A stretch of DNA of 54,266 bases, filler included, from Catajapyx aquilonaris (lineage: Eukaryota), in NCBI GenBank assembly GCA_000934665.2. It is 2 parts of 2 records of this genome, joined end to end, with 100 filler letters (N's around TTAATTAATTAA, not from the genome) between each part and the next. Parts side by side here need not be neighbours in the genome. Positions count along the whole stretch, not along the records: positions 27,162 to 54,266 come from KZ539289.1; 1 more part is not named here. One strand, given 5' to 3'. Both the position numbers and the translations under genes were made by a program. Under the pieces are notes generated by a model, which saw only the letters and a list, made by a program, of their open reading frames with translations, was not told the origin of the DNA and did no database searches. Positions 628 through 52,654 of this stretch are shown in pieces. Within the stretch, counting starts at the first letter, position 1, and each line of letters starts with the position of its first letter.

Positions 628-2766
628 TCAAGCTGGGCCTCCTGACTCTGACCCATCTGCAATTGGATTGACATTGTTAACTGCAGGTTGTTGCTGTGGC
701 TGCTTTCCTCTCAAGTCGAACACATCCTGTATGGCCTGCCTGAAGCACATGAAATTGTAGTGTATCAACCCTTGCCGGTCAAAGTTGTCCTCACGCAGTA
801 TGCAGACCAGCGCAAGAAACTTATTGACCTCACGCAAGTACAGCACAGTCGAGTTGTTGAGCCGTATCATGCTGGAGGATTGGGAATCAAAGGCAGCACC
901 ATCATCATGCTGGCCATATATGCAAGAGATGTCGATGACAACATCGATCATGTCGCAACACAGCTCGTAGCTCTGCATGTCCACAGGTGATGAGTCAGTG
1001 GCAATGTAAATTTTGGAGACCACATCAAACAGGAAGGCCTTCTCAATTCCAGAATTAGATATGAATATGTTGAGCAGGTTTTCTAAGGTAGGAAGCTGTG
1101 GGATGAGCTTCTGGACCACTTTAGAGAAGGCTTCAAATATGCTGTGGTCATAGATAGACGTGAGGTAAAAGGAGAGGTGAAGATTATCAAAGCCAGCATC
1201 CAGCAGGTCATCATTTGCCCTCTGGTGGACGTCTCGTTGGGCTTCCATCTTGGCATCATCTGAGAGGCCGTCCACCTTGTGCACAAATACCTTGGGAGAA
1301 AAAGTCAGAATGCAATTTTATGACCTTTACTGTTGACATTCCCAAACTCTCCGAGAAGTACCATTTCTGAGCCAATAGTACATTTGCACCCCCAACCTAA
1401 AGTAACGTGTCATTTGGTACTTGGGAGTCTTGCTACAGAGGTAATTCTCATTGTTACAAGAGTTCTTTATACAATCTGTAATGCAGATTAAACACATGAC
1501 ACCTTCATTGCATTGGAAACTCCTCATACACCAAATGTACTTCCCTTGTTAGTTATTTAATGTGAAAACTGATATGTGAAAGTTATCATTTTAACAAACA
1601 ATGATCCTCACCTCAAATCGTATTTGTGGATTGACTTTGAATGCCTTAGTGACCGTGAGATGTAGCTTGTTAAGAGCTTCCATGTAATCATCCTGTGCAT
1701 CAATGACAAAGACAAGGGCTCCACACCCACCAAAGATCATTTCTGAGTCGAAGGTTGGGTCAAAGAAGTCAATCTGGCCTGGAAAGTCCCAAATCTGGAA
1801 CTGGACAAAGGAGGAGTTGGAGATGTCATCCTTCACAATCTTATTGGTTGACTCCAGGAAGAGGGTCTCATTTGGCGACATCTTGTGGAAAACCACTTTC
1901 TGGATAGATGACTTGCCACTCCTTAAGATAAAACACATGCAAAAATTGCTGTTACTAAATTTCCACACTGTATTTTCTAAGCATGGCTAGCCCTCCCTTT
2001 TGATGACATGAAGAGGATTTCTGCAGGGCACCAGGTGGAATGTTTGGAGCAAACAGTAACAATTTCACCCTAAAATAATTTGTTTCATCGCTGATCAAAT
2101 CACTCATATGTAAGTACGGCCTTACTGTGCAAATAGTGGTAGGGTGGTGAAATCAAGAGTGACCAGATTTTTAAAAATGCACATCTAGTGGCCATACCAT
2201 CATACTGGTACACAAGGTAGGGTATGCCAGCCTGCAGTGAGATTTTGTCTACGTTTTATTAGTGAAAATATCTCATTACACCAGCCAACTGCTCTTCCAG
2301 AGTTCACGGGCCTCCTGGTTGACCTCATTTTACACAAAGTAAGCGGCTATTTGCATGGTAATATGTATCTAATTTGGGCAACTAATGAATAACTACAATA
2401 ATTCAAAGTTATCATAATTATGTCCAGGAGACCCAACTGCAATCAAGTAGCCTCAGACCATCAGTTTTTACCTCCTGAGTCCCATAAGGAGAATGCGTGG
2501 CTTCTGCTCAGTGGGCAATCCCCCCGAGGCAGTAGCAACAGCAGTAACTGCCTCTGGCTCCCCATCATATGGTCCGTAGGCAAACTCCTTGGGGAAGGAA
2601 CCCACGTCGTATCCTCCGCTGAACTGCTCCTCCTCCAGGGCCTTGTACGACGACTGCAAGATGGACCAAAGAAGCAAAATGTTATGTCTGACTCTGCTAG
2701 TAATACCTCCAGCATGCATGATATGGTAAAAGAGTAACGAATGACGGTAAGGGATCGCCTCACCAT
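628..2766 (-). CDS. RagC-D: Ras-related GTP-binding protein C/D (Rag GTPase, Gtr2 family), about 385 aa, 4 coding exons
   Basis: Exons 2766-2764 (ATG only, then gtgagg), 2653-2472, 1921-1612, 1290-628 join in frame with GT-AG introns. Protein has [50 protein letters not shown] and [14 protein letters not shown], the conserved RagC/D G-box motifs. Confidence 0.96.
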
Positions 2767-14800: not shown

Positions 14801-17800
14801 AGATATGATAGATTACGTTCTCAATTTTGCATGGACAATCCAGTCATGTGTGTCTACCAGTGGGACTAGAATGACTGGAGCAAGTATGTAATGGTAGTCC
14901 CCGGTCTACGAATGGGGTTATGTTCCTGAAAATGCCCACAAGTAGAGTTTGTACATGACTTGGATCCCTGAGGAACAGTGAATACAGTGTGAAGATTCTG
15001 CTCCAACGAACCACTAACCAACTAAACCACTAAAGTAAATCTGGCCAGCTTGAAGTGAAATACTGCCAGATTTGTTTTTCTGAAAATGAGTACTCCCTGC
15101 CTTTAGGCAGTGCATTACCCTGTATATGGGATTTTTTTGTTTAAATTAGTGCATAAAGTCTTGTCAGTAATCCTATTTGACCTGCTAACAGATTAGTTGA
15201 CCATTATTATTGGAGAAGATAGATTGCCATTGTAGTTTACATAAATATGTTTTCAGGCTTTGCGCAGCACTGGCCTTCGCAAGGGAGATATTCGCTTGTC
15301 TGAGATGTACAAGACCTTGCAGAAGGTGCAGCATGAGCTGGGTCAGGATGGATCTGTTGAGACACTCAAGTTAGATCGTGAAACATTCAAAAGGTGAGTG
15401 CCATGTATTGCCACACACTCACCATGCTGAGACCTCTGTGACCAAGAATTAATTACCACCTGGTAGTGTGACAAAGAGTTTCACGGTCATCTAGTGGCTA
15501 CTAGTATATTAACATATTTTGAATAATGTAATTTTAATTCTGGAACTGAGGGCAGCATCCAGTGGCGGATCCAGAAAGTTTTTTCTGGGGGGGNNNNNNN
15601 NNNNNNNNNNNNNNNNNNNNNNNNNNNNNNNNNNNNNGGGTGTTCCAGTTCAAGGTCACAACCCTTTCTCCGTTCCTTGCGACCCCAAACCGGAAAAGAA
15701 CCCATAGAACAGTGCAATAGGTTTTTTCACATGGAAATAATTTTGATGGGTTCTCTCCATGCTCACTTGAGTTTCCTTGATGTTCTTCCATTTCCATCTG
15801 TAATCAAAATCTATCCCAGTGCTGTTAATGAATGAAGTAGAGGTACAAAACAAGATTGGCAAATCACGCAAATGGGATTCGAGCAGACTTTTTCTCATTG
15901 CCACGGAAATTCAAATTGGACAACAATGATGTAGAATGTTTCCAGTCTCATTTCTCGTATCCAAGTAACCGCCGGAAAATAATTTCTAAAGCATGTAGAC
16001 TTGACCTTGTAGGATGGAGTGAACCCAGAAAACCAGAAGTGGCCGGTCACTGGAAGTTGACCATGAAACATACAGTATTTAGGGTCCACTGAATCCGAAT
16101 CCGCAAAACGTTTGTCTCTAAAAATAGTTTGTTGCTATCTCTTGCAATTTAGGCCTTGATGCCTCTCCACAGACAGACAGATGGACGGATGGACAGAGCC
16201 ATTCTATAAGATATTTTTAAATGAGAAGAAGTCTAAAAAGAGGTTCCCCTAAGAAGCCACAAGTCTATCATGCAGTGCTCATTTATCGTTGTCGTTGTCA
16301 TCATTATTGGAATAATTGAAATGTAATACCTTCCTGACATTTCTGATACAAATAATGATCACAATTAACTGATCAATAATATACTGGTGGTTTTCATGGA
16401 AATGCCCTTTGGTTTTGAGCCTTGGCAGCCAGGGGGATGGGGGTGGTGGTGGTTATAGGTTAGGTGAGGTGATGTGAGCATAAAATCTGAAATGCAAAAA
16501 GGATTTAATAATTTTTAATTTGTGGCTGCAGGCGAATTTTCAAGCTAATAAATTATCATAAGATGAAGATGTACAATTTTATCATTAAAAATCATGGCGA
16601 CAATTTGTTGGATTCAAGTGTCAAATGTAGGTCCTTGTTTTTCTAATGAATAGACCAGCCTAACCCATAACCTATGATTCATGTGTATGAAACTGGATAT
16701 GGAGCATTTCATTTGATGATTTTTATTCATTTTTAGGGTGATTGCTGACAATATAGTGCTTATATCTCGGGCATTCCGGCACCAGTTCATTATCCCCAAC
16801 TTCCCTGACTTCACCAAGGATATTGAGGAGTTCTATTGGAAGTGCAAGACCATCTCTGGAGGGAAGGTCGCCAGCTACATTCCCCAACTAGCTCGCATGA
16901 ATCCTGATTATTGGGGTGTATCTGTGTGTACCATTGATGGACAACGATATTCCATTGGTGATGTGACAGTGCCATTCACCATCCAGTCCTGCAGCAAGCC
17001 ACTTACATATGCCATTGCTCTGAATGAACTGGGTGCTGATGTGGTGCACCAGTACATAGGACAGGAGCCAAGTGGTCGCATGTTCAATGAACTGGTCCTT
17101 GACTACAACAGTATGTCCTTTTCATAGCCTTTTAACTATGTAGACCTATATACTATAGGGTTAGTATAGATGTGATGAAACATCAATTTTGTTATTTCCA
17201 GAGAAACCTCACAATCCTATGGTGAATGCAGGTGCTATAGTCATATCATCACTGCTGCACACTATTATCAAGCCTGAGATGACATTGGCTGAGAAGTTTG
17301 ACTACACACAGAGTTACTTTCGGGTAAAGCTCACTAATAACATACAGGAAATTTAGGATGAACCAAATATTTTATGTAGAAAGCTAGAAAATTTCGGTGT
17401 TACAAAATTGTTATATGCAAAGAAAATATCCACATGTTGCACATTTGTGAGATTGATCAATTCATTCTTTTTTGCTCTGTCATTGATTCTTGTAACTGAA
17501 TTTCAAGTTCACCTACTAAAACTTACATGTCCCATTCATTTTGATATCAGCACTGAAACAATAGCTTATACATCTATTGTATATTCCCACAGAGACTGGC
17601 TGGTGGAGAAAACATCGGGTTCAACAATGCTGTATTTCTGTCTGAGAGGGAAGCAGCTGACAGAAATTATGCCCTAGGTTTCTACATGCGTGAGAACAAG
17701 TGCTTCCCAGAAAAGACTAATCTCAAGGAAGCCATGGATTTCTACTTTCAGGTAAGTTTGCAATGATTAAATTTTTTGTGTGGACGGAATATATGACACA

Positions 17801-20133
17801 TGTTTTGATCATTTTCAACCTGATCTCAATCCTTTGGCCTCCTTCTTCCAACACTGCTTTATTGATTGATTCCTTGTCATTTATTTTCCCACTGAGTAGC
17901 TGATCTTTACAAATGGCAGCAGATTGACTAGATAACTAGTTTTAATGTCTTCACTGATGCATTTTGATGTGAAGATTTTTCCACCTTCCAAATTAGAAAA
18001 AAATATGCAGAGGTGATGCTCTGGAGCATTCACCATGTTTATAAGTGAAAAAATGTGTTACATAGCATGCAGTTGGCCCTGTTTTACAATGCTCCATTTT
18101 ATGATGTTTCTCATTAGTGACATCTTCAATATTACCTTAATAATTATTGAAAATTAATTTGAAAGGTGCATTGTGACGTCATGGCCCTTAGGTATACAGA
18201 GGTAGGCCTCATTACAACCGTGTTTTATGGGAACTTACGAGTAACTCCATGAAACAGTGCCTAAGTGCTTATTCAAACTTTGAGTGTGTAGCAGTTGAAG
18301 ATGGGTGACTTGCACAATGACAGATCTTTACAGTACTACAAGTTATTCTAACATCATTCTCTACTTGTTGACAGTGTTGCTCCATGGAGGTGAACTGTGA
18401 GTCAATGGCTGTGACAGCTGCCACCCTAGCTAATGGTGGCATTTGCCCAATATCAGGAGAGAAGGCACTGAAGCCTGACTCTGTGAGAGATGTCCTCTCG
18501 CTAATGCACTCCTGTGGCATGTATGATTACTCTGGCCAGTTTGCTTTCAACGTGGGGTTGCCAGCCAAGTCAGGGGTTTGTGGTGCTCTGCTGGTTGTCA
18601 TTCCAAATGTCATGGGGCTTGCCATTTGGTCTCCGCCACTTGATCCATTTGGGAATAGTGTTCGTGGAGTCCAGTTCTGCTCAGTAAGTTACATCATTTA
18701 TACCTTGCCTACTTTCATGTATAGTACTAACAGAGTGCACTTTGCTGGGAGCTGAGGTATGCTCATGCTGATTAAATTTGACATTAATATCAATATACAT
18801 CAAGGCCATTTTATTGTCATTGTGAGTTGTATGTAGACTCTATGAAAACAAATATGTGACTACAGGTTTTTGTGACTGCACCAGAAAAGGAAGATTTTTC
18901 TCCATGAACAAACCATCAGAGTGATCTGGGGATCTAAGTTAGGAGTCAGAGGTAGAAGGCTGTGGTGGTGACCATCATGGCACCATGCCACCTACAATTA
19001 TATGTATGGTATAATTATAGTATGGAGGAATAGGTAACTCTTTGAAACAACAATGTCAATGTAAATTCTCATCTGATTTGAAGGGGCACAAGCATATGAG
19101 AAAGGTGTAGCAGTTCTGAGCAATACCATCAGAGTGAAGGATGTGTGATTATAAAACAATGAAGAAGTTTATTGATGTACAACATCTCAATGACTGTTTA
19201 TCAATATGAGAAAGGGAGGGGGGGGGGGGAGCATGAGACATGTCTACTTATTTTTAACATCACAGACTGATTTTTGATCTCAAGGTCACAAGATGTCACA
19301 AGAACATGTTGCTAAATAGATTAGCCAATGTGAAGTTGATAACTTTTTGCTTCCCATAAGGTCAATGATCATTATGTGTATTGGAAACTTGACAGCCATA
19401 AATTTTTCACAGACAGTGTGATAGTTTGGCACCCCATGGTGTTACACTTGGGTTCTCCAAAATTGAAGAACCAGGGAAATTATCTATAGTTTTATCCCCA
19501 TGGATATAATAGGGCACTTTTTTTTGTCACTGAAGGAAAAATTATGTGAGGTTCCAGCCATAGTGCACTAGTGTTGATGATAGTAGTGTACTATACCTTA
19601 TGTGCAACTACCAGATACATTTTCAGATATTTATACATGACTTGACAATATTCTTTATGTGTAGTGCATACCAATGTGATTCATACATTCTGTTTGATTT
19701 TTAGGAGCTGGTGAATGTTTTCAACTTCCATCGTTATGACAATCTGAAACATGCAGCGAATAAGAAAGACCCCCGGCGGCATAAGTACGAGACTAAAGGG
19801 CTGAGCATTGTTAACCTGCTGTTTGCAGCTGCAAGTGGTGATGTCACTTCTATGCGCCGACAAAAGTTGTCTGGGATGGACATGACCCAGGCAGATTATG
19901 ACGGACGTACTGCTCTCCACTTGGCAGCAGCAGAGGGTCATTTGGAAGCAGTGGAATTCCTATTAAGGCATTGTGGGGTCAGTTACAGCCCTATGGACAG
20001 ATGGGGACATAGGCCTGTAGATGATGCAGAGCATTTTGGCCAGACGGTCGTGGTGCAGTTCCTGAAGCAGTGGAGCGAGGAGCACCCAGAGGTGCCTGCC
20101 ATGAATGGTGATGAGGTTCGTCCAGAGGCCTGA
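11837..20133 (+). CDS. GLS: Glutaminase (kidney/KGA-like isoform with N-terminal EF-hand-like domain and C-terminal ankyrin repeats)
   Basis: Common exons 13884-13960, 14030-14132, 15257-15393, 16737-17110, 17202-17323, 17593-17751, 18375-18683, 19705-20133 join in frame (569 aa). Motifs: EDVLFD...[20 protein letters not shown], catalytic [41 protein letters not shown], ankyrin [16 protein letters not shown]. First exon uncertain; 11837-12031 ([11 protein letters not shown]..., presequence-like, GC donor) is used for the start. Confidence 0.93.
13434..13468 (+). promoter_or_regulatory. Candidate internal TATA + Initiator promoter of a glutaminase isoform
   Basis: TATAAAA at 13434-13440 with Inr-like GCAGTT whose A (13465) lies 31 nt downstream, followed by a candidate first coding exon at 13658-13798. 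Confidence 0.45.
14220..14470. mobile_element. Small MITE-like element in a glutaminase intron
   Basis: ttttggaaaaagggcagatgtca (~14230-14252) is the exact reverse complement of tgacatctgccctttttccaaaa (14438-14460), with weaker matches extending outward. Confidence 0.6.
15594..15637. other. Assembly gap (44 N) in a glutaminase intron
   Basis: N run flanked by G homopolymers; the upstream cagtggcggatccag resembles a hAT-type transposon end. Confidence 0.95.
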
Positions 20134-27161: not shown

Positions 27162-27175
27162 TTGATTGATTGCAG

Positions 27176-28772
27176 ATTACTCAACAACAATTTGGAGAGT
27201 TGTGCGCACCCGTGATTTCCGAAACTCTGAAGCACGTGAGAAGTTTAATAGAAAAGGCCAGAATAGGAAAATGTCAAATAGAGCACGTGGTCATGGTCGG
27301 AGGTTCAACACGTATGCCAAAGCTGAAAGAAATTGTCAAAGATTTTTTGAACCTGAAAGAGCTGGACCAATGCATCGATCCAGAGGAAATAGTTGCTTAC
27401 GGAGCTGCTGTACAAGGTGCTATCCTGAACAAAGATATACGAAGGAAAATGACTCCCAGGAAAGGAAGCGCATCTTCTTTGCGGAGATTCAGATTTTGGT
27501 CGTCTTTCAGAAAGGAAGTCCCGGCAAGTACCAGTAAGAAAACACCTCTTGATGTAAAAAGTAATGTAGACGAAATCCTTATGCAGTTAGTGAAAAGTGA
27601 GAAACCAGACAGAGAAATTGAAGTTGAACAGAATCCAGACGACAAAGAGAAAATAACTGGTCAGACATCTGAAAAAACTGACACAAAGATTCCTGGGAAA
27701 GATGAGCCTGACGATGACAATATAAAAGGAGAAGAGATCATCGGGGAGACCCATGAAAAGAAAACGAAGCAAAGAATACCACCAGTTGTCCAGCCTGAAC
27801 AACTTACTACGCCAAAAGTCTCACATGAGTATCGCATGCAACCCCAATTGGATGATCATCCTATCATCTCCCTTGAAACAGAAAAGCCTAAACAAACTGT
27901 CATAAATGTGGCAGAAAATGACCAATCAGTACTAACTGCAAAGGTCAAAGACTCACAAGAGTACAGACTGCAAGGACTATGGGGTGAACATCCGATGGTC
28001 TCCGATGAAACAGAAAAACCTGATAAACCTCTCAAATATGACGAAAGATTCGACGAAACCAACCACGAAGAGCTTTTAATTAGTCACAAGCGGCAAGAAG
28101 AGTTAGTAGATAGTATAATTACGATCAGTGATCGGAAAGACATTGTCTGTTTACCTCTCCTTGTACATTATTACAAACGCTTGCTGACAATTACTGATAA
28201 TGCGGCTATACACTCTGAAAAAGGCATTGTATGCAATAACAACCAGGTGAAAATGACAATTCCTGTGAGTATTTTAAATATTATTATTCTCTCAGCTGAA
28301 ATGCAATTCGCAACGACAAATCTGCACAATTGTTCCCTTGTTGTTTATTTAATTCCAGATCGCTACAACGAAGGCTCTTCGTAATGTTGGAATAATTATC
28401 AGCATTGATGCTAACGGAATTGTAGGGGTAAATGCATCCGAAACAGTGTCAGGCAAACGTAACATCATGTGTCCCGACAACTCCGCAGATGATTTGAGGA
28501 AAGCAGAGTTGCCAGATATTATCCTCAATGAAACGCAGATATTCGGCGATAAGGAGGAAATGAAGAAGGAGAGAGACGCGGCCAAGACAATTGTGGAGAA
28601 TTATGTATACGAGCTGAAGCATGACCTGAAAGATTCACCCGAATATGATGAGAAGCAGAAGGCGATGGACAAGTGCTGCGAAACCAGCAAGAAAGATGAT
28701 GAGCTTTTAATTAGTCACAAGCGGCAAGACGTGACCACTTTCCAAGAAAATCCTCAAACGCCAGCCGTACAG
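27176..28772 (+). CDS. HSP70-like unit A (5'-truncated): end of NBD, large insertion at the linker, degenerate SBD; possibly spliced to unit B
   Basis: Exons 27176-28264 (IEHVVMVGGSTRMPK, IDPEEIVAYGAAVQG, then a long charged insert) and 28359-28772 (IISIDANGIVGVNASE, AKTIVENYVYELK); frame stays open to a stop at 28806-28808 if unspliced. Exons 1-2 are missing beyond the spacer. Confidence 0.8.
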
Positions 28773-28834
28773 GTGTTGAAATCCGAGGAGGTGTCTGCTA
28801 AATTGTAACACTTTCAATATCAACCATGTTTCAG

Positions 28835-31145
28835 GTACAGACACCAGAGGAGCCACAAATTATAAAACCCATCAGAGACACGAGAGGAACAGGCCCTGCA
28901 GTGGGCATTGACTTGGGCACCACATGTTCTTGTGTAGCCGCGTGGAAGGATGACGAGGTCACAATCTTCTTCAATGATCACGGAAATCGAGTGACACCAA
29001 GTTTCGTTTCCTTCACTGAACATGAGAGGCTGGTGGGAGATCCTGCCAAGCAACAGGTACAGTGTTGGTCATAAATGGTGGCATACTGCCAGCGACATTT
29101 TCCGAAGCGGCAGAAGAAGGAATCTTGCTCGCCCCGGTTTGTAGTATGCTTATTTTCGATTCTTTCTTCTGCCGCTTTGGAAAATGTCGCTAGCAATATA
29201 TTACCTCGATTTATGACCAACACTGTGTGTGACACGCATTGAAAGCAGCAAAATTCCTGAGCTCCCTTCAACTCACAGGTGGTGAACACGCCGGAAAACA
29301 CAGTGTACGACTCTAAGCGTCTGATTGGACGCAAATATGACGATCCTGTGGTGCAAGAGGACATGAAGTCATGGAGCTTTCCAGTCGTGAAGGACAACGG
29401 AAAACCTCGTCTGGAAGTGAAGTACCATAAACAGAGGAAGAGGTTTTACCCAGAGAGTTCAATGGTCCTGGCCAATTTGAAGGAGACAGCGGAGACTGCT
29501 CTGAAGACAAAGGTGACAGACGCAGTGGTGACAGTACCTGCTTACTTCAACGACGCCCAAAGACAAGCGACCAAAGACGCCGGAGAGATCGCTGGTCTGA
29601 ACGTCCTTCGAATAATCAACGAGCCGACAGCAGCAGCCATTGCTTACGGACTGCAAAACAGGTCGAAGAAAGACACCAATGTTCTGTTGTACGATCTCGG
29701 AGGAGGAACCTTCGACGTGACAGTGCTGACCATCAATGGTTTGACCTTTAAGGTCAGGGCGACATGTGGTGATACTCACCTGGGAGGGAGAGACTTTGAC
29801 AATCATTTGGTGGAATATTATGTGCAACTGTTTAAGAGGAAGCAAAAAGTGGACATCACAGGAAATTATAAGAGTATTCAACGACTTCAAACCGCATGTG
29901 AAACAGCCAAAAGGACACTTTCAGGCAGGATTGACACGTACGTGACTGTAGAGAACCTCAGCAACGGTATCAATTTAAACGAAAAGGTATAACATGTCAC
30001 TTTGGCCTCACTTGCGACAGAATTAATACAGTGTTTTACCTTGCAGTTGTCACGAAACAAATTCGACCATCTGTGCATGGAGCTTTTCCGAAAGACCATG
30101 GATATTGTAAAACAAGCTTTGTTTGATGCCAAAATTGATAAGAGCGACATTCATGACGTGGTTTTGGTCGGCGGTTCCACTCGCATACCACGGATAAAGG
30201 CAATGGTCAGAGAGTTCTTCAACGGCAAAGAGCTGTGCATGAACGTTAATCCAGAAGAAGCGGTAGCCATAGGAGCCGCCGTACACGCCGCCGTACTTCA
30301 TGGTGACCACAAAGGTCACCGCATAAATGAAGTGGTGCTGGAGGACGTCATTCCGATGTCGCTTGGCGTAGAGGTGGAGGGACATAAGATGGGCGTGATT
30401 TTGCAGAAGAACACCAAAGTTCCATGCAAAAAATCCAGAATATTTACTATTGAAGGCGATAACCAGGGTACATTTCCAATATGCGTGAGTAACATTGTGT
30501 AATATTATTGCTCTGTAATATTGTACTTATTCAATGCGTTTCATAATGATTTAAAAAAAACCAAACCTCAAAAAAATTCCTATGAGAGTAGTTAACCTGC
30601 TTGAATCACTACATAATTATTTTCTTCATTCCATTCAGGTGTATGAGGGAGAGAGTGATGAGGCGTTGAAAAACAACCTTCTGGATTCCTTCACCTTGAA
30701 AGGGTTTCCTCGTCAACCCTCACCCAAATTTGATGTGACCTTTGAGATAGACGCGAACGGAATTCTGAAGGTGACAGCGATCGAAACCACTTGCGGTCAA
30801 GGACAGAGTATAACCGTGACCAATGCCAGGGGACGATTCACTCAAGATGAACTGGAACAGATGAAGGAGGAAGAGGAGACACTCAGAGAAGCAGACAGGA
30901 GGATGAGGGAACAGGTGTTCGCCAGAAGTGAACTGGAGGATCATGTTGACAAAGTTAGGGAAAAGGCAGAAAAGATGGAAGGAGACGGCATTTATGTAGC
31001 GGGGAACAGAGAGGCGATCATCGACATATGCGACTTGGTCTCGCTCTGGATGGAGGACAATCCACATGCGGAAAGAGAACAACTGCAAGAGAAACTGGAA
31101 AAATTTCACAGAGAATGCTTGGAATTGGGCATGACATACGAGTAA
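28835..31145 (+). CDS. HSP70-like unit B (about 624 aa from the acceptor), no EEVD
   Basis: Exons 28835-29056, 29279-29986, 30047-30484, 30639-31145. [71 protein letters not shown]. An in-frame ATG at 28826 overlaps the acceptor and is an alternative start. Two-residue deletion in YPE--SSMVL. Confidence 0.9.
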
Positions 31146-32292: not shown

Positions 32293-34502
32293 ATGCCCGG
32301 GAAAGCTCCAGCTATCGGCATAGACTTGGGAACGACCTTTTCCTGCGTGGCTATCTGGCAGAATGGAAAGGTCCAAATCATACCGAACGACCAGGGGAAT
32401 ATGGTCACGCCTAGTTACGTTGCCTTCACAGACACAGAGAGGTTGATCGGAGACGCAGCCAAGGCGCAGGTGAGGTGCAGGTATTGTAAACTAGGAAAAT
32501 GCTACTTAGCATAATGACAACATTGTTCACCTTAGGTGTCAATCAACCCAGAAAACACTGTGTTTGACTCCAAACGCCTGATTGGCCGCACATACGACGA
32601 CCCCAGAGTACAATACGACATTGGCTTGTGGAATTTCCAAGTGGTAGACGACAACAACAAGCCACTGGTAGAGGTACGTAGTGAAGGAGTGAAGCGAAGG
32701 TTCCACCCTGAAGAGATAAGCGCCATAGTTTTGAGCAGTCTGAAGGAATCGGCCGAAAATTACCTGGGCATGAAGGTGACAGATGCAGTGGTGACGGTAC
32801 CTGCTTACTTCAACGACGCCCAGCGTCAGTGCACAAAAGACGCAGGGAAAATTGCGGGTCTGAATGTCCTTCGCATAATAAACGAACCGACAGCAGCAGC
32901 CTTGGCCTACGGATTGGACAAGAAGCTGAAGGAGGCCAACAACATCCTGGTGTACGATCTCGGAGGAGGAACATTCGACGTCTCGGTCCTGACCATCAAG
33001 GGCACTCACTTGAAGGTGCTGTCGACAGCAGGGAACACACATCTTGGTGGAGAAGACTTCGACAACTGTCTCTTGGACTACTTCGTGAACGATTTCAAAC
33101 TAAAGTACGGCAGGAACCTAACGGGTCTTCCGAAGTCTATGCGACGACTTCGCACTGCATGCGAGGAGGCTAAGAGGGCATTGTCCAGTCTAAAAGAAAC
33201 CACCGTAACAGTGGACAGCATATGCGGGACAATCGATTTCGTTTACAAGGTATGATAAGCAAGCATCGAAAATTTGAAAATATGTTGTAAATAGGTTTTA
33301 AATGCGAGAAAAATTTTTTACCTTAGTATGAGAGAGGTGGATTGGCTCATTTCGTCAATTTACGGCCTTGAAAAATTGTGTTGAAATTTATACAATGAGG
33401 CCTGTATTCCTATTGTTCATAAAACTGATTTTGCGAATAATTTCAGCTGAGGCGACCCATGTTTGAAGATCTGTGCATAGGCCTCTTCCGAAAAACGCTG
33501 CGTACAGTCGAAACAGCCTTGAATGATGCCAAGATGGACAAGAGTCAGATCGACGACGTGGTTCTGGTCGGAGGATCGACCCGGATTCCAATGATACGTC
33601 AGATGGTGACTGATTTCTTCGGAGGAAAAGAGCCTTGCAAGAGCATTCATCCGGACGAAGCTGTTGCATATGGGGCTGCAATTCAGGCCTCGATTATGAG
33701 CAGGCACGATGAGGAAGAAGAGGAAAAACCTTCTGTTGGCCAGGCTGGAGAACAAGACGAACAAGTGATGGACATTGTGCTGGAGGATGTGACTCCGATG
33801 TCACTGGGGCTAGAGGTTGCAGATGGGAACATGGAAGTGATTGTGGAGAAAAACATGGCCGTCCCTTGCCAAATGTCGAAAGGATTTACCACATCAGTGG
33901 ACAATCAGGATTCAGTCAGTTTCAGGGTAAGTCACCACGTATACAAATGTAATTATTTGTCTATTGTATTATGGACTCTTTACAAGGTGTTTGAGGGAGA
34001 TCACGCCAAGGTTGAGAGCAACAATCTTCTGGACTCGTTCAGTATAACTGACCTTCCTCCTGCACCAAGAGGCGTGCCTGACATCCAAGTAACTTTCAAC
34101 ATCGACGCCGATGGGATCCTGACTATCTCAGCTGTTGAAACCGCATCGGGAACGAGCAGCAACGTGACCATAAAGAACGACAGGGGTCATCTGAGCCAAT
34201 CGGAGATCGAGAGGATGATGAAGGACGCTGAGAAATACCAAGTGGACGAGGAGAAGAGGAAGGAAAGAAAAGAAGCGAGGGCCAAGCTGGAAGGTTTTGT
34301 CTTCCAGTTGAAGCAGGATGTCAGGAATGCGAGCGACAGTGAAATACTTGTGGCAGACAAGGTGGAGATGATGGAAAAGTGCGACCAGGTGCTGGAGTGG
34401 CTGGAGACAGACCAGTTGGAAGAGAAAGATGACTGCGAGTATCAAATGAAGAAGCTGCAGAAGGAATATCTGATGAAAAAATTAAATGCACTACAGGTGT
34501 AA
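32293..34502 (+). CDS. HSP70-like gene C (about 628 aa), intact ATPase motifs, no EEVD
   Basis: Exons 32293-32469, 32536-33249, 33447-33926, 33987-34502, all phase 0 GT-AG; all three HSP70 signatures plus IPPAPRG-like [23 protein letters not shown]; ends KKLNALQV. Confidence 0.93.
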
Positions 34503-35350
34503 TCAATACCCTTTTTTGTCACGCGAGGTGGATAAATTTATGTAAAATTTAATGTAACGCGAAACATCTTTATAAATTGAAGTACACATTATTTTGCACA
34601 AATCCTGGCGATTATCTGTAACTTACATAAATCTACCCGAATGTGACAGTCAAACATTTTATTACTTCTCCAGCACAGCCCTTGTAATTATTTCATATTA
34701 CACGTAAGGTTCCCAATAAATGAACCAATTTTGGAGAATGTCATCCTAGCACACACCTGACCATTTTAAACACATTATTGCATTTTAATACGACTCATTT
34801 CGAACTACAAGTGAGAGTTTATCTATAAACTTAAATAATTATGTCCCAAAACCTTTAAACAAGCAGAATTCAATTAAAATAAGAAAATATAATTTAATGA
34901 ATATTGACCTGCATGTAGGCACACTTCAACTCTGCATTCCGTAGTGTAATGCAGGCATTTCTTCTTCTCCAATACGATACAAGAAAATCAACCACCTCGT
35001 TGGGCGTAAGTTAGGTCAACATTAAAAACATGCAAAGCATATGATTAGACAATATTTTAGAATATCCGTAAAACAATAGCTGGAGCATGTCTAGTTAATC
35101 AATCGGCGAATAAACAGCTCTAGATATGGGTGTTGCTTTTATAAACAAATAACAAAATTATTATTGTTGACAATTATAATATTATCGCTACTAGGAGTTC
35201 ACTAACATGCAAATATCATTCAAGTAAAAAAATACCATGTAATTATTTAGAGGAAATGTACAATATACGAGTGGTCAGGGACTATAGACACAACTGGGCC
35301 ACATCTGAACCAAGTCCTTTATCAGCATTTCATTTGCTAATAGATCAGTA

Positions 35351-37204
35351 TTATACGAGCGTGTAATGAAAAGTGGGACCATGCTTCACAGAGTCAGCTC
35401 GTATGGCAGCTCCGATGGCAACTGCTTCATCCGGATTTACGTTCTTGCAGAGCTGTTTTCCATCGAAAAATTCCTCGACCATGGCCTGTATCCTTGGTAT
35501 GCGGGTGGAACCACCAACCAGAACAACGTCTTGGATGTCCTTCTTGTCTATTTTCGCATCAGAAAGAACTTGCTTGACAATCTCCAAGGTTTTTCCAAAC
35601 AGTTGTTGGCAATGATCCTCGAATCTGTGTCTCGACATCTGGAATAAAATGATGAATTATTTTGTAAAATGGGAGGAATATATTGCGGTAATTATGTGAC
35701 TTAAATTCTTTGAAACACACGTAGTATTTGAAATCGAATCCATCGCAAATGTTATCTATTACGACATTTGCTCTTAAAACGTTGTACAAAGCTTCCTTGG
35801 CCTCCTCCCAGGCGATTCGCAGCCTTTGCATGGCTCTGTGGTTCCCTGTGATGTCTTTCTTGCGATTCCGCTTCAAAATATCGACTAAGTAATCCACGAT
35901 GATGTTGTCAAAGTCTCTCCCTCCCAAGTGGGTGTCGCCACATGTCGCCCTGACCTTGAAGGTCTTATTTTTGATGGTTATAACTGTGACGTCGAAGGTT
36001 TCATCCCTGAGGTCGTAAACAAGCACATTTCTCTCTTCCTTCGACATGTTTTCCAATCCGTAAGCAATCGCGGCTGCAATTGGTTCATCGAGGATCTCAA
36101 GGACGTTCAGACCAGCCATTTCTGCTGCGTCCCTCGTCGCCTGTCTTTGGGCTTCGTTGAAATAAGCAGGGACCGTCACCACTGCGTCGGTCACCTTTGT
36201 CCCCAAAGAAGACTCGGCTGTTGAAGTTTTCAAGTGCTCTAAAATCATAGAACTAATCTGCTCAGGATAAAACCGCTTCTTCTCTCCATGATACTGGACT
36301 TCAACGAGAGGTTTACCAGCGACATTCACAACAGAGAAACTCCATGACTGCAGATGTCTTTGAACTTCTGGATCATCGTAATTGCGACCAATGAGACGAT
36401 TCATATCGTAAACTGTGTTTTCAGGATTTAACACCATCTGTAAGGAGGGGGGGGGGGACATGACTGTCAGATACAACACCGATTAGAGCAGGAGTAAACT
36501 AATATAGAAAATGGGATTTCTACTAATGATACATTATCCTTGGTACTTAAGTTGTGGTTAGCTATATATGGAACAGTCAGAAGTTTTTATTTAGTATTTA
36601 CGTCAGTAACTTCATTTTATACACGGAGATTGTCGGTCACTGGGAATTCTTCATGTGAAAAAATCTTTCAACATACGTAGGCCTATACCAGTACCTGTTT
36701 CGAATAAGATAATGTGCAAATTGTCAAACTAATCTTCTCGTTTTAAGCAGTTAATTCCTTTTCTTACTTCAAGGCTATAATAAAATATCATATAGCCTTT
36801 AATATCAGGTTGGAAGATCCTTGTTTTAGGGCCTAAATTGCCATGACTGAAGGAAACTTTGCACAACTCATTTGGACCTCAGGTCAAATGGTTTAAAAAG
36901 ACTTTAAACCAATGCATAGGCCCTATACTAGACCCTCCCTATTGAATTAATGAGAACTGTAGAACAAAATAATGTAAAGGACGAAAATGTAAAAAAATAC
37001 TGGTACTCCTTGTTTGGCGCCATTTCCTATCCACCTGTATGTTCCATCAAACTCGACATAACATGGAGTCAATCTATTGCCATGTTCGTTAAATAATACA
37101 TGGGCTTCTCCATCCTTCCACACAGCTACGCAGGAGGACGTGGTGCCCAAATCGATGCCCACTGCTACCCCTGACCCAGCTCTGTTCCACGTATGTCTTC
37201 GTAC
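35351..37204 (-). CDS. HSP70-like unit D: nucleotide-binding domain only, degenerate catalytic motifs, no own ATG (probably fused to upstream ankyrin exon; may be a pseudogene)
   Basis: Exons 37204-~37007, 36437-35721, 35638-35351. [23 protein letters not shown] and [10 protein letters not shown] retained, but [17 protein letters not shown] and [10 protein letters not shown]; stop shortly after AVAIGAAI, with no SBD exon found downstream. Confidence 0.8.
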
Positions 37205-37305
37205 CTGAATCAGAGAAATTAACGATTATTAAATTACATGGTTGGGAACGACTTGTACACTGGAATCATTAATCATTTCTTCCGTTTCTGTCTTCTGTGT
37301 TCAAT

Positions 37306-37812
37306 TTAATCGTTAATTTTCTGCAAGAAATAATACTTCACTGTTTCAGCGTCATCATTTCCAGAAATAGCACGGTTCAGGGATGTGTCGGGCTCTTCAT
37401 TTCGCTTTGTGACATCTCCATCACTTCCATTCACAAGCAGCTTGACGGTCTCCAGGTGACCATTGGCCGAAGAGTAGTGAAGAGGAGTGTTGCCCTCTCG
37501 GTCAACAGTGTTCACTTCGGCGCCACGCTCCATGAGACGCTGACATATCTGGACATGACCGCCTTCGGATGCAAAGGACAGTGCTGTGCGAAGGTGTGAG
37601 TCTCGAGCGTTGACGTCTGCCGAGTGCTTCAGCAGCACCTCTACGGCACTCAGATGGCCACCTTTGGCTGCCAGTATTAGCAGCGTGGCACCCAATTCGT
37701 TACTGGACTCTACATTTGCGCCGAATTCCAGGAAAATTTCCAAAATGTTGGGGTGTCCTTTTTCTGCAGCTAATATTTGGCTTGAGAGTGGTACATCTAT
37801 TTCTTCCTGCAT
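37306..37812 (-). CDS. Ankyrin-repeat exon (about 4 repeats plus a degenerate fifth)
   Basis: LAAEKGHPNILEIFLEFGANVE / GATLLILAAKGGHLSAVEVLLKHSADVN / LRTALSFASEGGHVQICQRLMERGAEVN / GNTPLHYSSANGHLETVKLLV at 33-aa spacing; acceptor upstream at 37835-37836; candidate in-frame donor after 37342 to unit D. Confidence 0.88.
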   Translation of the reverse strand: MQEEIDVPLSSQILAAEKGHPNILEIFLEFGANVESSNELGATLLILAAKGGHLSAVEVLLKHSADVNARDSHLRTALSFASEGGHVQICQRLMERGAEVNTVDREGNTPLHYSSANGHLETVKLLVNGSDGDVTKRNEEPDTSLNRAISGNDDAETVKYYFLQKIND

Positions 37813-37914
37813 GATGGACAGGCACGGGAGAAACCTGCGTAGTGCAAATAAATCGCAGTCTCAAACTGGAAGCTGTTTCTAATATCAGATGGAAAAGTAA
37901 CGGTCAGTTAATTA

Positions 37915-38098
37915 CCTTATTTGACGACATAATAAGACGCACGGGCGTATATTAAAGATGCATACCCATTTCAGCAGATCATATTCAGGAAAAAAATGTT
38001 CTTAGTGTATTTTCGTGTATAAGACGCAGCGCAATTTTTGAGCCTTTTTNNNNNNNNNNGGGGGGGGGGGAGTGCGACTTATATGTCGTCAAATAAGG
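37915..38098. mobile_element. TA-flanked pogo/Tc1-like MITE spanning a 10-N gap (38050-38059)
   Basis: TA|ccttatttgacgacataataagacgcac vs gtgcgacttatatgtcgtcaaataagg|TA, an inverted pair with TA flanks at 37913-37914 and 38099-38100. Confidence 0.75.
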
Positions 38099-38869
38099 TA
38101 AATACTCGGCATGTATTATTTTATCCGAGTATGTTGGCTGAATAGTGAAAACTTGTGCTTGAATGTTGAGAATGCGCATTTTTAACAATATTTTTCATAA
38201 CTGCCTGATCAGAGCCCTGCCAATTTTTACCACTATAATGACACGTTAGAGGGGCCCTTAGCGCTTAGGCTACAATATTATTTTATTTCACAATGAACTT
38301 ATAATAATGCTCCTGACATATCTAAAATGTAACTTCTATTAAACAGGACTTACGAGTGATGAACACAGTGGCCAACTATGAAGGTGAGACGTAAATTCTG
38401 AAGGTCTTGATCTTATCACCAGGTAGCCAAGGTGTTTGTGATAACTTGGGTTACATCATTATGATTAGTCCCAGGGATAATTACATCGATTTATTTTTCC
38501 AATGCACACGATTTGTAATTAAATAAAAATATGAAAATTGACGCACTGATGCACATGTAAACTCATAAAAAGTCATGGGATTTTCAGACTTTATTCATTG
38601 TCACCTCTTAACGACGAATAATTAGACGAGTATAATTAAATATATTTGAGAATTTCTGCAAAACATACGATGCTAAAGCATGTCAAACCCACCTAAACTT
38701 TTAACACAAGATATTATATAAAATCTAGAGCCGGAATGTAGAGGATCGGATTTATCATTTCAGATATGGAATGGCTGTATCCAATATCCCGTCTGTAAGA
38801 TAATTGCCCAGGGTAATTTCATTAATGTTGTGTGAGTTTAAGTTGTTGCATGTATCCCAATAACTTGCA

Positions 38870-41800
38870 TTATATTCTCAGGTTGATGATCAACTGAGAA
38901 AATGTTTCCTTGAATTGCTGAAGCTTCACTTCAAATTCGTGTTTCTTGGCACAAATGTTTTCGTCAATGAAGTCCAGCGCTTCAAGACACTCGTTCTTCA
39001 CATGCTGCTTTTCTTCTTCAGAAACGCCAGACCTTTCTTCCACCACCTGCTTCAGTTTGTACACGAAGTTCTCCAGATTTGTTTTGGCGATGTCTTTGTC
39101 CTTCTGCATTGCCTCGATGTTACTAAATATTTCTAGTTCCCCACGCATTTGTGACAATTCTTTTTGCCTCAGTTCACTATGTTTATAGAAGAACTGTGTT
39201 ACTTTGCATTCTCCACGCATTGTTTCTACACTCTTGGAGTTAAGAATCCCGTCGTCGTCGATGCTGACAGTGATCTCAATCTTAGGGCCCGAATCCATTC
39301 CATATCTTCTTTGGGTATCTCCTTGAAACTGGATAAACATGATTAAAATACATGATCAGGTAACGAAATTATAAAGATTTAAAGAATGAGATTCACAACT
39401 TACAGGAATATTTATGCACACAGATTTCGTATTTCGCACTTCGCACTTGCAACGTGCAATCTTCAATCGTTCCTTCAAAATTTCTATCATTCCGCCCTTA
39501 CACACGGCACCCAGAATTAATTTGGGGTCACTCCTGGTGTCCATCCAGGTGATTTTGTCTGCCAAGAGATCTTCTGAATTACAACTGCCGAAAAGATCAG
39601 TACTCTGGCCAATCATATTGACGACATGTTCGCTAATATCGCCATCCTCTGATTCGGTTGTGTCTGAGTTTGAGCCAAAATCGTCATGCAATTCGTCTGT
39701 AGTAAAATGGTACTGACATGGGTCTCTGGACATGGAATCATTACTGGAAATGACTTGAGAAACCACGGAGTCTCCTAAGTCCCCTGATGACTTATGCTCG
39801 TTGCACTCGTCAGCACTGTCAAAGTCCGATTCGCTGCTGGCTTCTTCGACATTTATGTCAGGAACGTTATCTTTGAAAACAGTGTCCCTGCTGTCAGATA
39901 TCCCTTTGCCACACTGGTCTCCAGACAGGCCATTCACTTTGTCAGTGATTGAAATCTCATTTGCAAGATCACTTGTATTGTCGACAAGTGATTCCGAGTT
40001 AATATCGTGAGGCGATTTCAGTTGATCGGATGGTTCAGAGACTAATAATAATCGATACTGATGAATACCATTATCATCTTTCGTGTCATGTTCATGGTTT
40101 ACACCTACACTGGGAACGTCTACCTCTTCCCGTGCATTTTGTGATTTGTTTATTGTACAACACTTCTGATCGTTTGCCACATGGGTCATGCTGCATTCTT
40201 GTACCTCTTTTGCAATTGGTTGGACAACCTTTTCTAAGTCGTGGTCTTGTGTTTCATTTTCACTGACACCTAGTTCACACACACTCTCAGGGAAAGGTCT
40301 GCCACAAAATATTGTCTCATCCTGGTTGATCATTTCCGCCTGGGTTTTGGTACCGTTTGCAGGTAGGTATTCATACTTGTTATTGCTTGACAACTCACTT
40401 TCCAGGCAGATGTTGTTGTCTTCTTCGTTGTTTATGGAATAAATCTCCAAATCTGACGTGAAGTCGCCTTTTATGTTCACTTGGTTCTGCAAGGAGTCAT
40501 TTTTGTCCTTGGCAGTTTCTTCGTCGCTGGAAGTAATTTGTGTGTGCTTATCATTTCCATCGACAGACTCTGATGATATTCCAGACGCGTCAGAGCCGAT
40601 TACACTGTCATCCTCGTCGTTTATAACGCCGTAAGCTGGTTTTGCAAAGTAAGTTCCATTTTCTCCCTTTACACCATCCTCATTGACCTCTGAACTGTCA
40701 GAGGAGCATCCATCTCCGGACCATTCCCTATGGGTCCGGTCATGTACACCTTCTTGAAGAAGTCTGCTGCAGGATAGTGTCTCACACAGATGATTGCTTC
40801 TCAGCTTTTGCACTTGACTGGTTTCAGTTCGGTCGAGTCGTAAGCTATCAGTGAGAAGAACACCTTGCACAGCTGCTCCATAAGCGACTATTTCCTCCGG
40901 ATCGATGCCCTGAGCTAGTTCTTTCAAACTGAAAAAATTCTTCGCCATCTCCCTCAATTTTGGTATTCGAGTCGACCCACCCACCATGACCACGTGCTCT
41001 ATTTGACTCCTGTGTATTTTGGCCTTGCTCAGTGCTTGTTCCACTACAATTAGCGTGATGTTGATAATTTCTGTGCAGAGAGCTTCCAAGTGCTCTCTTG
41101 TAACCTGTAACAATGAGATAGGCATACAATATATTATTGTACACAAGAGACATTGCTGCTGCATAATGAATGACTGATTAGGAGTATGTAACTATACTGT
41201 ATTATATGTTCCAGTTTGATAGCACACCTTGCAAGAGAAGTCCCGTCCTTTCCATAAATTGTGGATTTCTAGCACAGTCTCATTTTGGAAGGAAAGAGTT
41301 TTCTTGGCTTCCTCGCACGCTGGGTAGAATTTCGACATGGCATCTTCATCACTCCTAAAATCTGGATTATAGTCTTGTAATATTCCATACATGCATTGCG
41401 ACACCATCAGCTGATCTATGTTCTTGCCTCCCAGCATCTCGTGACTCTCGCTCAAAACCATCTTCGGGTTAAAATCATACACATTCAACACCGACACTTC
41501 GAAAGCGTATGTGCCCATGTCATACACCAGAACAAGACCTGCGTCCTTGAGATTATTTTTGTGGCAGTAAGCAAGGGCAGCAGCAGTGGAATTGTCAATG
41601 ACGTGAAGGAGGTTGACACTGGCAATGTTTGCGACACCAGTTGTCGCTTGGTTTCGTTGGTAATCGTTGAAATATGTCGGCACAGTCATTACTGCTTGCG
41701 TCGCTGAATGACCTAGGAATCTCTCGGCGTTGACAATCATTTTGATCAATATCCTGGACATGATGCGTTCAGGGTAGTACTCTTGCTTACTCCCATAATT

Positions 41801-50733: not shown

Positions 50734-52654
50734 TTAAACACTCGTCATTTTCGTAGTGGATTTTTCCGAGCTGTCAGCAATGTATCTTCCGAGCTTTATA
50801 TCGGAGATCGTCTTCTTCTGACCGAACACTGACACAACCACTGTGGCAGTGAGAATTCCCTCTGAATTGTTGTCAATATATATTTCAAATTCAGGTTCAC
50901 CCGGTGGTGGATCATGTTCACTTGATCGTAAATCCACGATGACTTTGTCATCAGATCCCTGCAAAAATAAACCAAGATGTAAACGTGAAGTATAAAACGG
51001 CAAATATTATGATATTATGCATGAAGTTTTTAACACAATTGCGGTGTAGCCACGTTTCTGCTTACCTGTTTGGGGCACAGTTCTGTGGGAAACGGAATAT
51101 TCGAATCTCTGTTCAGCTCAATGACGATGTTGCCTTCCGTGATCTCGACACGCAGCGTCATCGGCACTATGTCCTCGACCATCAGGCCATTGATCCGGGA
51201 ATGATTTTCTCCGTTGATGACAGCAGCTTGCAAAGCAGCACCACACACTGCTGCTTCCTCTGGATGGACGCTTCTGCATATCCTTTGCCCAAATCCTCGC
51301 ACAGCGTGACGAATTTTTGGAATGTAGGTTGACCCACCCACCATTAGCACATCATCAATTCCGTCTTTGTCAAGCTCGGCCTTTCCTAGGGCATCCTCAA
51401 CTTTATTCGTGGTCATTCGAACGAATTCATCACAAATGTCCTCAAACTGAGCCAGTGTTACCTTAAATGAATTATTGTCGATTTAAAAATAATCTCCAAG
51501 CCAGTTGTCAACAGTATACTTTGTAACGAATATACTTTGAGCAGTATTTTATAGAAAGCTTTACCTTCTCAGTGAAATCGTTTCCATTCAAGATTCCGTC
51601 CACTTCCACCTGAGCCTCTTTAATCAAGGACAGAGTCTTTTTGGCCTTCTCGCAGGCGTTTCGAAACCTCATGAATGACTTGGTGTCATTTATCTCCAAC
51701 CTATTGGCATTCAATATGTGGTCGACCAAAAGAACATCCAGGTCCATCCCTCCCTTGCAAGGGTCTCCGGCTGTAGACAACACCTGGAGGTTCAATCCCA
51801 CTATTTTGACCACCGACACATCAAGTGATCCTCCTCCGAGGCTGTACACCAGGATGTTGCTCTTCTTCTGAGGTCTGTTTTCCACTGCGTAGGCAATGGC
51901 GGCTGCAGTTGGCTCGTTTATGAGGCGGATAGTTGTAAATCCGGCGACATCTGCTGCGTCTATTGTCGACTGTCGCTGGGCGTCGTTGAAAGAGGCAGGC
52001 ACCGTCACCACTGCACCAGTCACGTGTTCGTCAAGAAACTGCTCAGCAGTTTCCTTCATCTTCTCCAAGATCATGGCAGTGATTGCTATTGTGTGAAACT
52101 CCTTCACTTGTTGGTCGTAATTTACTCTGACACCTGTGTTATTGTCCCGCTTTTCAGCCAACTGGAATGGCCAGAATCGCAGGAATTTGTTGTTGTCCTC
52201 GTCCTCGACATACTGTAATTTCTGTCCGATCAGCCGTTTGAAATCGAACACGGTGTTCTTCGGGTTCAGAAATTCCTGCAAATTAATTGCGCAATGCATA
52301 ATATGTTAAATGTACGAGTCCTGCACAAAATGCGTCGTGATTTAAAGCCGAGAATGCACATTTCCCTCATTATACTGATTACAATGCAGTGTGAATGGCT
52401 CACATGTTTGCATCACTGTGCTTGACATCAACAAGGAGTCCAACGACATTCGTATATAAACCAATATTTCTCACCTGCTGTTTGGCAGAGTCTCCGAGGA
52501 GTCTCTCGGTGTCTGTGAATGCGGCATAATTCGGGGTGGCCTTGTTTCCGTGGTCATTTGCAAGAATCTTGACCTGACCCTCGTGCCAGACTGCCACTCG
52601 AGAGTAGGTGGTGCCCAGGTCGATTCCAATCGTCTTTCCGGCCATCTCTGACAT
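50734..52654 (-). CDS. HSP70-like gene H (about 503 aa): NBD + degenerate SBD-beta, no helical lid
   Basis: Exons 52654-52475, 52275-51565, 51461-51066, 50958-50734. [37 protein letters not shown], but [10 protein letters not shown] and VGGSTYIP; last exon only 74 aa ([24 protein letters not shown]). Confidence 0.85.

Follow-up and report, generated by a model that had tools for sequence, protein, structure and literature searches.

An ankyrin exon spliced onto a cut-down HSP70 copy in Catajapyx aquilonaris

The subject of this analysis is a stretch of 54,266 nucleotides (nt; hereafter the window) of animal-type DNA from Catajapyx aquilonaris (assembly GCA_000934665.2), made of two parts joined by 100 filler letters, the second of which (positions 27,162 to 54,266) comes from KZ539289.1. 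Eight HSP70 units form a cluster in the window, three of them on the plus strand (A, B and C) and five on the minus strand (D, E, F, G and H). The element under study is unit D, an HSP70 remnant linked to an ankyrin exon. An earlier reading of the sequence alone, here called the original prediction, had described it as a probable fusion of ankyrin repeats with an HSP70 nucleotide-binding domain (NBD) that lacks the substrate-binding domain (SBD) and looks like a pseudo-ATPase. The pieces of unit D, placed on the minus strand by motif search, are as follows, with a slash marking exon boundaries.

38354..38368, minus strand: 3' end of a 5' exon, apparently non-coding (donor CTC/GTAAGT, last exon base 38354)
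37835..38353, minus strand: intron 0, between the 5' exon and the ankyrin exon
37337..37834, minus strand: ankyrin exon as used in the RNA contig (acceptor cag/G at 37834, ATG at 37812, four ankyrin repeats, then GTATTA)
37340..37341, minus strand: GT of the in-frame donor ACA/GTGAAG of the original prediction (exon end 37342), not the donor seen
37205..37336, minus strand: intron removed in RNA contig 6, 132 nt, GT..AG
37165..37167, minus strand: TAG ending the 171-residue ankyrin open reading frame (ORF) of the observed spliced form
37007..37204, minus strand: HSP70 NBD exon 1 with the phosphate-1 loop GIDLGTT (5' end by RNA; 3' end GGA/GTACCA only by homology with the intron position of paralogues)
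35721..36437, minus strand: HSP70 NBD exon 2 (Pfam E 2.3e-81; 3' end by the RNA joint of 35721 with 35638)
35639..35720, minus strand: intron, 82 nt, GT..AG (contig 2)
35351..35638, minus strand: HSP70 NBD exon 3, to the stop TAA at 35353-35351 (Pfam profile positions 293-373 of 599)

The RNA evidence comes from one public run (X1, library kind not stated), of which only the bridging contigs were used. That X1 contains spliced RNA follows from two minus-strand GT..AG joints in its contigs. The first is found in contig 6, which is 703 letters long, has a word depth of 3.17 and matches without any mismatch. It joins 37834-37337 to 37204-37015; as matched, its two pieces cover 37334-37834 and 37015-37201, with 3 letters ambiguous at the joint. 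The ankyrin exon is spliced onto the cut-down HSP70 copy, and the acceptor at 37204, which had been predicted from the sequence, is the one used. The second joint lies in contig 2, which connects 35721 to 35638 and confirms the 82-nt intron, while contig 1 covers 35185-35528 without a splice and so crosses the stop of unit D. Contig depths in X1 are low at this locus (3-8). Cover is lacking at 36210-36439, at 36900-37014 and below 35175; the junction between exons 1 and 2 falls outside the covered parts, as does the link between the ankyrin-containing contig and exons 2 and 3. A further X1 contig of 344 letters lies wholly within intron 1 of unit D (36539-36882) at a depth of 7.4, higher than over the exons. 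No second copy of this contig occurs in the window, and it could represent a retained intron, a transcript of its own or an exon missing from the annotation.

The donor differs from the one predicted. The original prediction had joined the exons from ACA/gtgaag (37342), whereas the sole contig across this junction leaves the ankyrin exon at 37337, with GAA/GTATTA. The two donors are 5 nt apart and both are weak, and the difference between them decides the reading frame. As the two frames require an intron length of 2 modulo 3 and the intron removed is 132 nt long, the observed form is out of frame: its ORF codes for 171 residues and ends 13 codons inside HSP70 exon 1. Only donor 37342, spliced in silico, gives a frame of 557 residues. 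The in-frame product of about this length that had been proposed hence exists as a possible reading of the DNA, but the spliced form that was seen yields 171 residues instead. The removed intron holds the ankyrin tail with its stop (37308-37306), the relic of a start context of the unit B type and a 26-nt insertion with stop codons, both considered below. A junction pattern permitting either donor gave 0 matches in metagenome contigs.

In the sole junction contig, the ankyrin repeats and the NBD do not share one frame of the mature mRNA, although its depth of 3.17 leaves room for a rarer form. This bears directly on an alternative account, in which both donors would be used and a minor or condition-specific in-frame form would encode an ankyrin–NBD scaffold or decoy of 557 residues, with an NBD that neither binds nor splits ATP and ankyrin repeats that serve in recognition. 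We consider this account unlikely. The in-frame form exists on paper and the acceptor that it requires is in use, but the only junction seen breaks the frame, and the presence of an in-frame donor is unremarkable. Over the final 175 nt of the ankyrin ORF there are eight GT dinucleotides, and four of these would be in frame with the NBD, so that an in-frame GT near the end of this ORF is no more than expected by chance and provides no evidence of design. The proposal that the ankyrin repeats stand in for the lost SBD on a dead NBD scaffold or decoy depends on this fusion protein, which the observed, frame-breaking junction does not support. We hold equally doubtful the wider notion that one young gene might, by its choice of donor, produce either a small ankyrin protein or an ATP-blind NBD tagged with ankyrin repeats, the latter as a new-born pseudo-chaperone adaptor that had only just emerged, within the fast-evolving cluster, from a broken HSP70.

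With regard to the ankyrin part, its location directly upstream of the GIDLGT exon was borne out: a minus-strand ORF starts at ATG 37812, and the exon is a clean open frame of 184 codons with tandem 33-residue ankyrin repeats. It matches Ank_4 (E 1.9e-32), Ank (1.5e-29) and Ank_2 (2.5e-27), with two to three matched stretches each. Unspliced, its tail reads on to the stop at 37308-37306. The tail had been suspected of a frameshift, but none is seen, and it adds merely 1-3 bits to the ankyrin Pfam scores; the 33-residue tail taken alone has no Pfam match. A single-sequence AlphaFold model of the unspliced 168-residue ankyrin ORF has a mean pLDDT of 50.8, with the tail below 50. The 15-letter loose end of contig 6 past 37834 matches 38354-38368 exactly, a match that is unique in the window and is followed by GTAAGT. 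As contig 6 extends into this 5' exon, the ankyrin exon is an internal exon. With the 5' exon joined on, there are in-frame stops and no ATG upstream of ATG 37812. Within intron 0, a poly-C run is followed by an assembly gap of 10 N (38060-38069), and the two arms of a 34-nt inverted repeat (91% identity; 37909-37942 and 38072-38104) enclose the gap. X1 contigs pile up over 37909-38104 at a depth of 15.9 with loose ends, as they would at a dispersed repeat.

These features also help to judge whether the whole locus could be transcriptional noise, that is, a stray ankyrin exon and a dead HSP70 joined through cryptic sites in a transcript that mRNA surveillance would degrade. The contig depths of 3-8 and the weakness of both donors would suit such an account, as would the stop of the 171-residue ORF, which precedes the next predicted exon junction by 158 nt and is a long way from the 3' end. 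Moreover, searches with the ankyrin exon turned up no close relative: the best match reached 48% identity among the 120 longer proteins listed and 46% among the 17 of similar length. Noise is nonetheless rather improbable, somewhat more so than the fusion, given that the ankyrin exon is a clean frame of 184 codons with strong Pfam scores (E 1e-32) and has its own ATG behind in-frame stops and a properly GTAAGT-spliced 5' exon.

The HSP70 part of unit D comprises a complete NBD and no SBD, as judged from coverage of the PF00012 profile (599 positions), of which exons 1, 2 and 3 match positions 1-52, 55-281 and 293-373 (E 8e-16, 2e-81 and 3e-31, respectively). Exon 2 aligns to residues 60-293 of NBD chains in the PDB (E 1e-80). 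The earlier observation that the NBD ends before the SBD holds: the TAA lies at 35353-35351, and an RNA contig runs unspliced through it down to 35185, which indicates that no SBD exon is spliced on. A tblastn search with the SBDs of the paralogues in 34400-35420 gave nothing significant.

The ATP site of this NBD appears to be ruined. Both losses reported in the original prediction, asparagine at the position equivalent to K71 (codon 36401-36399) and RDE in place of the phosphate-2 glycines G201-G203 (36008-36000), were confirmed by alignment to paralogues, canonical Hsp70s and PDB NBDs. K71 is essential for ATP hydrolysis by Hsc70. Five further losses were found in exon 2, namely R171E, N174D, T177I and the two that follow.

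35795-35793, minus strand: R272E, from the alignment of unit D exon 2
35786-35784, minus strand: S275Y, from the alignment of unit D exon 2

We take K71 to serve in catalysis, residues 201-203 to form the phosphate-2 loop and R272 and S275 to line the adenosine pocket of Hsc70, while R171, N174 and T177 presumably belong to the surface for J-domain binding and interdomain allostery. In comparison with units B, G, C and F, the changes K71N, G201R, G202D, G203E, S275Y, R171E, N174D, T177I, C267W, L50W and D53N are unique to unit D; position 272 is E in unit D and Q in unit G. Unit D has kept the phosphate-1 loop GIDLGTT, E175, D199, T204, D206 and the VGGSTRIP and NPDEAVA segments. With these additional losses, the description of the NBD as a probable pseudo-ATPase seems sound, and stronger than first drawn.

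The extent of these changes needs to be seen against the rest of the cluster. Invariant columns were defined from 20 canonical cytosolic Hsp70s taken from the database matches of exon 2, and departures at these columns amount to 54/179 in unit D, 38/175 in B, 48/169 in G, 32/176 in C, 27/170 in F, 66/174 in H and 84/176 in E. The whole HSP70 cluster is fast-evolving and unit D is not its most divergent member. In a rough count, 6 of about 24 nucleotide-contact positions are changed in unit D, compared with about 24 of 156 other conserved sites, an enrichment that is not significant. For a scaffold or decoy with an ATP-blind NBD, the combined loss of K71, the phosphate-2 loop, the R272/S275 pocket and the R171/N174/T177 surface (in the roles that we assume), next to the retained motifs, is what one would look for, but the lack of significant enrichment at nucleotide contacts in this count speaks against it.

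As had been noted, the GIDLGT exon has no ATG of its own, and no ATG in the NBD frame occurs before exon 2. This matters for a further account, in which the NBD would be translated alone, from a separate start site, a non-AUG codon in 37225-37205 or re-initiation, as a free NBD-only pseudo-Hsp70. The NBD frame is open from 37225, and HSPA13/STCH provides a natural NBD-only Hsp70 in animals. Even so, this account is very improbable: starting at the first in-frame methionine would cost the phosphate-1 loop and about 66 residues, and the contig shows exon 1 beginning at a splice acceptor rather than at the start of a transcript.

The origin of unit D can be traced through its relation to unit B. 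In the tree, unit D groups with unit B (bootstrap 62), and this pair with unit G (bootstrap 100). Units C, E, F, G and H have a methionine 6-8 codons ahead of GIDLG, while in units B and D an ACG stands in the place of that ATG, and both have an N-terminal extension. Unit B starts with CAACCATGTTTCAGGTAC at 28821-28838. Remnants of such a start, and of a connection to an SBD, are found in unit D.

37244-37236, minus strand: relic of a B-type start context, CAACCATGT, a 9-mer shared with unit B
37235-37210, minus strand: 26-nt insertion with stop codons, between the two shared 9-mers
37209-37201, minus strand: second 9-mer shared with the unit B start, TTCAGGTAC, from sequence comparison
35298..35335, minus strand: relic of the NBD–SBD linker, 38 nt, out of frame behind the stop, from local alignment to unit B

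At least two shared 9-mers arise in 353 of 50,000 shuffles. The ATG of unit D in the relic (37239-37237) is followed directly by TAA and is out of frame. From the shared 9-mers at the start of B and D, the acceptor at 37204 would be built from old coding letters, which read TTT CAG GTA in unit B. The CTG of unit D at 37213-37211 had been considered as a replacement of the ATG of unit B and was dropped, as an alignment that keeps both shared 9-mers fits better. At the other end, the linker relic is identical to the linker and SBD-start codons of unit B at 28 of 38 positions (score 18; 0 of 2,000 shuffles reach this score, with a maximum of 14), and unit D has 22 extra nt between the last NBD codons and this relic. 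Beyond the 38-nt relic, no SBD relic was found in 34400-35420. At third codon positions, identity between D and B is only 50%, and both relics are kept much better than that, which suggests that unit D was self-starting and of full length for most of its separate history and was disabled recently. The loss of its start and of its SBD would then both be recent events. Unit D shows two traits of an unprocessed pseudogene, a lost start and truncation relative to functional paralogues.

The reading that we favour, with a probability of roughly 55%, is that unit D is a transcribed chimera over a recently disabled HSP70 copy, consisting of a small ankyrin ORF and an untranslated NBD passenger. Unit D would be the remnant of a once full-length, self-starting HSP70 of the unit B subfamily, in a cluster that evolves by birth and death. 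Its own start would have been lost when the 26-nt stop-bearing insertion parted the start context from the frame, and its SBD has given way to a stop, 22 extra nt and the 38-nt out-of-frame linker relic, with nothing further left; several nucleotide-contact and allostery residues are lost as well. A transcript from further upstream, with the 5' exon ending at 38354, crosses the ankyrin exon and is spliced GT-AG from donor 37337 to an acceptor formed from the old N-terminal codons of unit D (37204). The resulting message would encode an ankyrin protein of 171 residues with four repeats, its probable product, and carry the NBD frame of 400 codons as an untranslated passenger, still open because the disabling was recent.

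Several observations weigh against this reading. The in-frame donor lies merely 5 nt upstream of the one used, and neither is strong. A rarer in-frame isoform would escape assembly at the word depth of the junction contig (3.17), the junction of exons 1 and 2 is without cover, and the RNA stems from a single run whose library kind is not stated. Furthermore, the 400 codons of unit D contain neither a stop nor a frameshift, and three adjacent glycine codons are all changed. Over 9 nt, a short neutral phase would predict less change than this; the changed triplet fits a longer relaxation of the ATP site. Finally, the ratio of nonsynonymous to synonymous change (dN/dS, or omega) is low. Pairwise values are 0.165 for D-B, 0.226 for D-G and 0.166 for B-G, with saturated dS of 1.1-1.4, and a star decomposition by hand arithmetic on these saturated values puts omega at about 0.22 (D), 0.12 (B) and 0.24 (G), so that the D branch as a whole was not neutral.

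The open frame and the low dN/dS could be taken in favour of a fusion protein, the NBD frame being open over 400 codons at pairwise values of 0.17-0.23. The relics indicate, however, that the low dN/dS would reflect a recent past as a self-starting, full-length gene. The D branch is the longest in its clade (1.04, against 0.66 and 0.77), and within the set D, B, G, C and F, replacements found in one unit at sites where the remaining four share a residue number 29 in D, about twice as many as in B (13) and G (14), with 2 in C and 8 in F. Spread over about 180 conserved codons, the excess of some 15 replacements in D would, by hand arithmetic, call for a neutral K of roughly 0.035-0.05. Simulations restricted to substitutions kept a frame of 400 codons open in 22% of cases at K 0.035, in 11% at K 0.05 and in 2% at K 0.1. 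The original prediction had stressed that the frame is open despite the motif losses. Open it is, over 400 codons, but this is weak as an argument for function, in view of the relics at both ends and of a neutral survival of 11-22%. Taken together, both features would be expected of a gene whose disabling is recent; they are weak evidence, which neither argues for selection on the present arrangement nor excludes it.

A search for relatives of the predicted architecture, which had been suggested as a check, did not bring support for a fusion. PF00012 occurs in none of the 120 listed long matches of the ankyrin exon and in none of the 17 near-length proteins, and no ankyrin family occurs among the 120 listed matches of exon 2, all of which are Hsp70s with identities of at most 58%; against representative proteins, the best identity of exon 2 is 57% among those listed. 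Ankyrin repeats were likewise absent from 30 N-terminally extended Hsp70s, hand-picked from 150 listed representatives because their match lies far from the N-terminus or is doubled, several of which are two-NBD proteins. The species and its near kin seem to be absent from the protein libraries searched, which makes these zero counts (0/120, 0/120, 0/17 and 0/30) weak negatives. No fusion of ankyrin repeats with HSP70 was found in a limited full-text literature search, and the passages of PMC8778642 that name both domains are unrelated to such fusions.

Comparison with known systems helps to place unit D. HSPA13/STCH, an NBD-only Hsp70 that animals share in conserved form, retains its ATPase residues and bears a signal peptide. 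Unit D resembles it in having an Hsp70 NBD without an SBD, but lacks K71, G201-203, R272, S275, a start of its own and any close relative in the databases searched. Exon 2 also aligns with the 44-kDa ATPase fragment of Hsc70 (PDB 1hpm and 3hsc; 1kax, 1kay and 1kaz), and unit D ends where the crystallised fragments end. In contrast to active-site mutants of Hsc70, among which we take 1kax-1kaz to be K71 mutants, unit D combines losses that were made singly in the laboratory. HSPA14/Ssz1 is an atypical Hsp70 for which ATP hydrolysis is dispensable and which acts as a scaffold rather than as an ATP-driven chaperone; this is what the unit D fusion would resemble if it were made. HSPA14/Ssz1 is, however, ancient, conserved and still able to bind nucleotide, whereas unit D is lineage-specific and was probably remodelled recently.

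If unit D is a disabled copy under a small ankyrin ORF, as we favour, it would exemplify the way in which broken copies are shed by growing HSP70 arrays and then picked up by neighbouring transcripts. Its main bearing would be on annotation, as a gene predictor that favours open frames would call an ankyrin–HSP70 protein of 557 residues that the RNA does not support. Were the in-frame form made after all, the locus would offer a dated, very young case of domain shuffling in which a dead ATPase becomes a scaffold.

Outside unit D, the HSP70 cluster is flanked by two other genes in the window.

628-1986, minus strand: gene of the Gtr1/RagA family (Rag-type GTPase)
16720-20133, plus strand: glutaminase gene with C-terminal ankyrin repeats

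The glutaminase repeats were considered as the source of the unit D ankyrin exon and rejected, as their identity to it is only 26-48%. Within the cluster, damage is also seen in other copies, in line with the favoured reading of unit D. Unit A, which is of the E type (57% identity over the NBD end), is truncated on its 5' side and lacks NBD exons 1 and 2, and unit G has a 1-nt insertion near 49083 (minus strand) relative to units B and D, reading GCTTGGTCTG in place of GCTGGTCTG; this insertion splits exon 2 into two frames and may reflect a pseudogene or an assembly error. The order along the minus strand is unit E, then the ankyrin exon, then unit D. Together, A-B and E-D resemble two copies, in inverted orientation, of a pair with one E-type and one B-type unit, in which case the 5' exon and the ankyrin exon would sit in an enlarged spacer between E and D.

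The frame of unit A stops just 17 nt 5' of the ATG of unit B (28806-28838, plus strand). The last 45 nt of unit A contain two phase-0 GT sites, CAG/GTGTTG and GAG/GTGTCT, either of which would give an in-frame A-B join if the TTCAG/GTAC of unit B were used as an acceptor, as it is in unit D. Units E (39356-41191, minus strand) and A (27170-28384, plus strand) both continue for several hundred acidic, low-complexity residues past the end of the NBD, and in these regions Pfam sees only profile positions 291-378. The ATP site of unit E is eroded, with G-T-Y at G201-203 and S at E175. In unit H (51508-52305, minus strand), D199 is replaced by S and HLGG by PCKGG, and with 66/174 invariant columns changed this unit departs further from canonical Hsp70s than unit D does.

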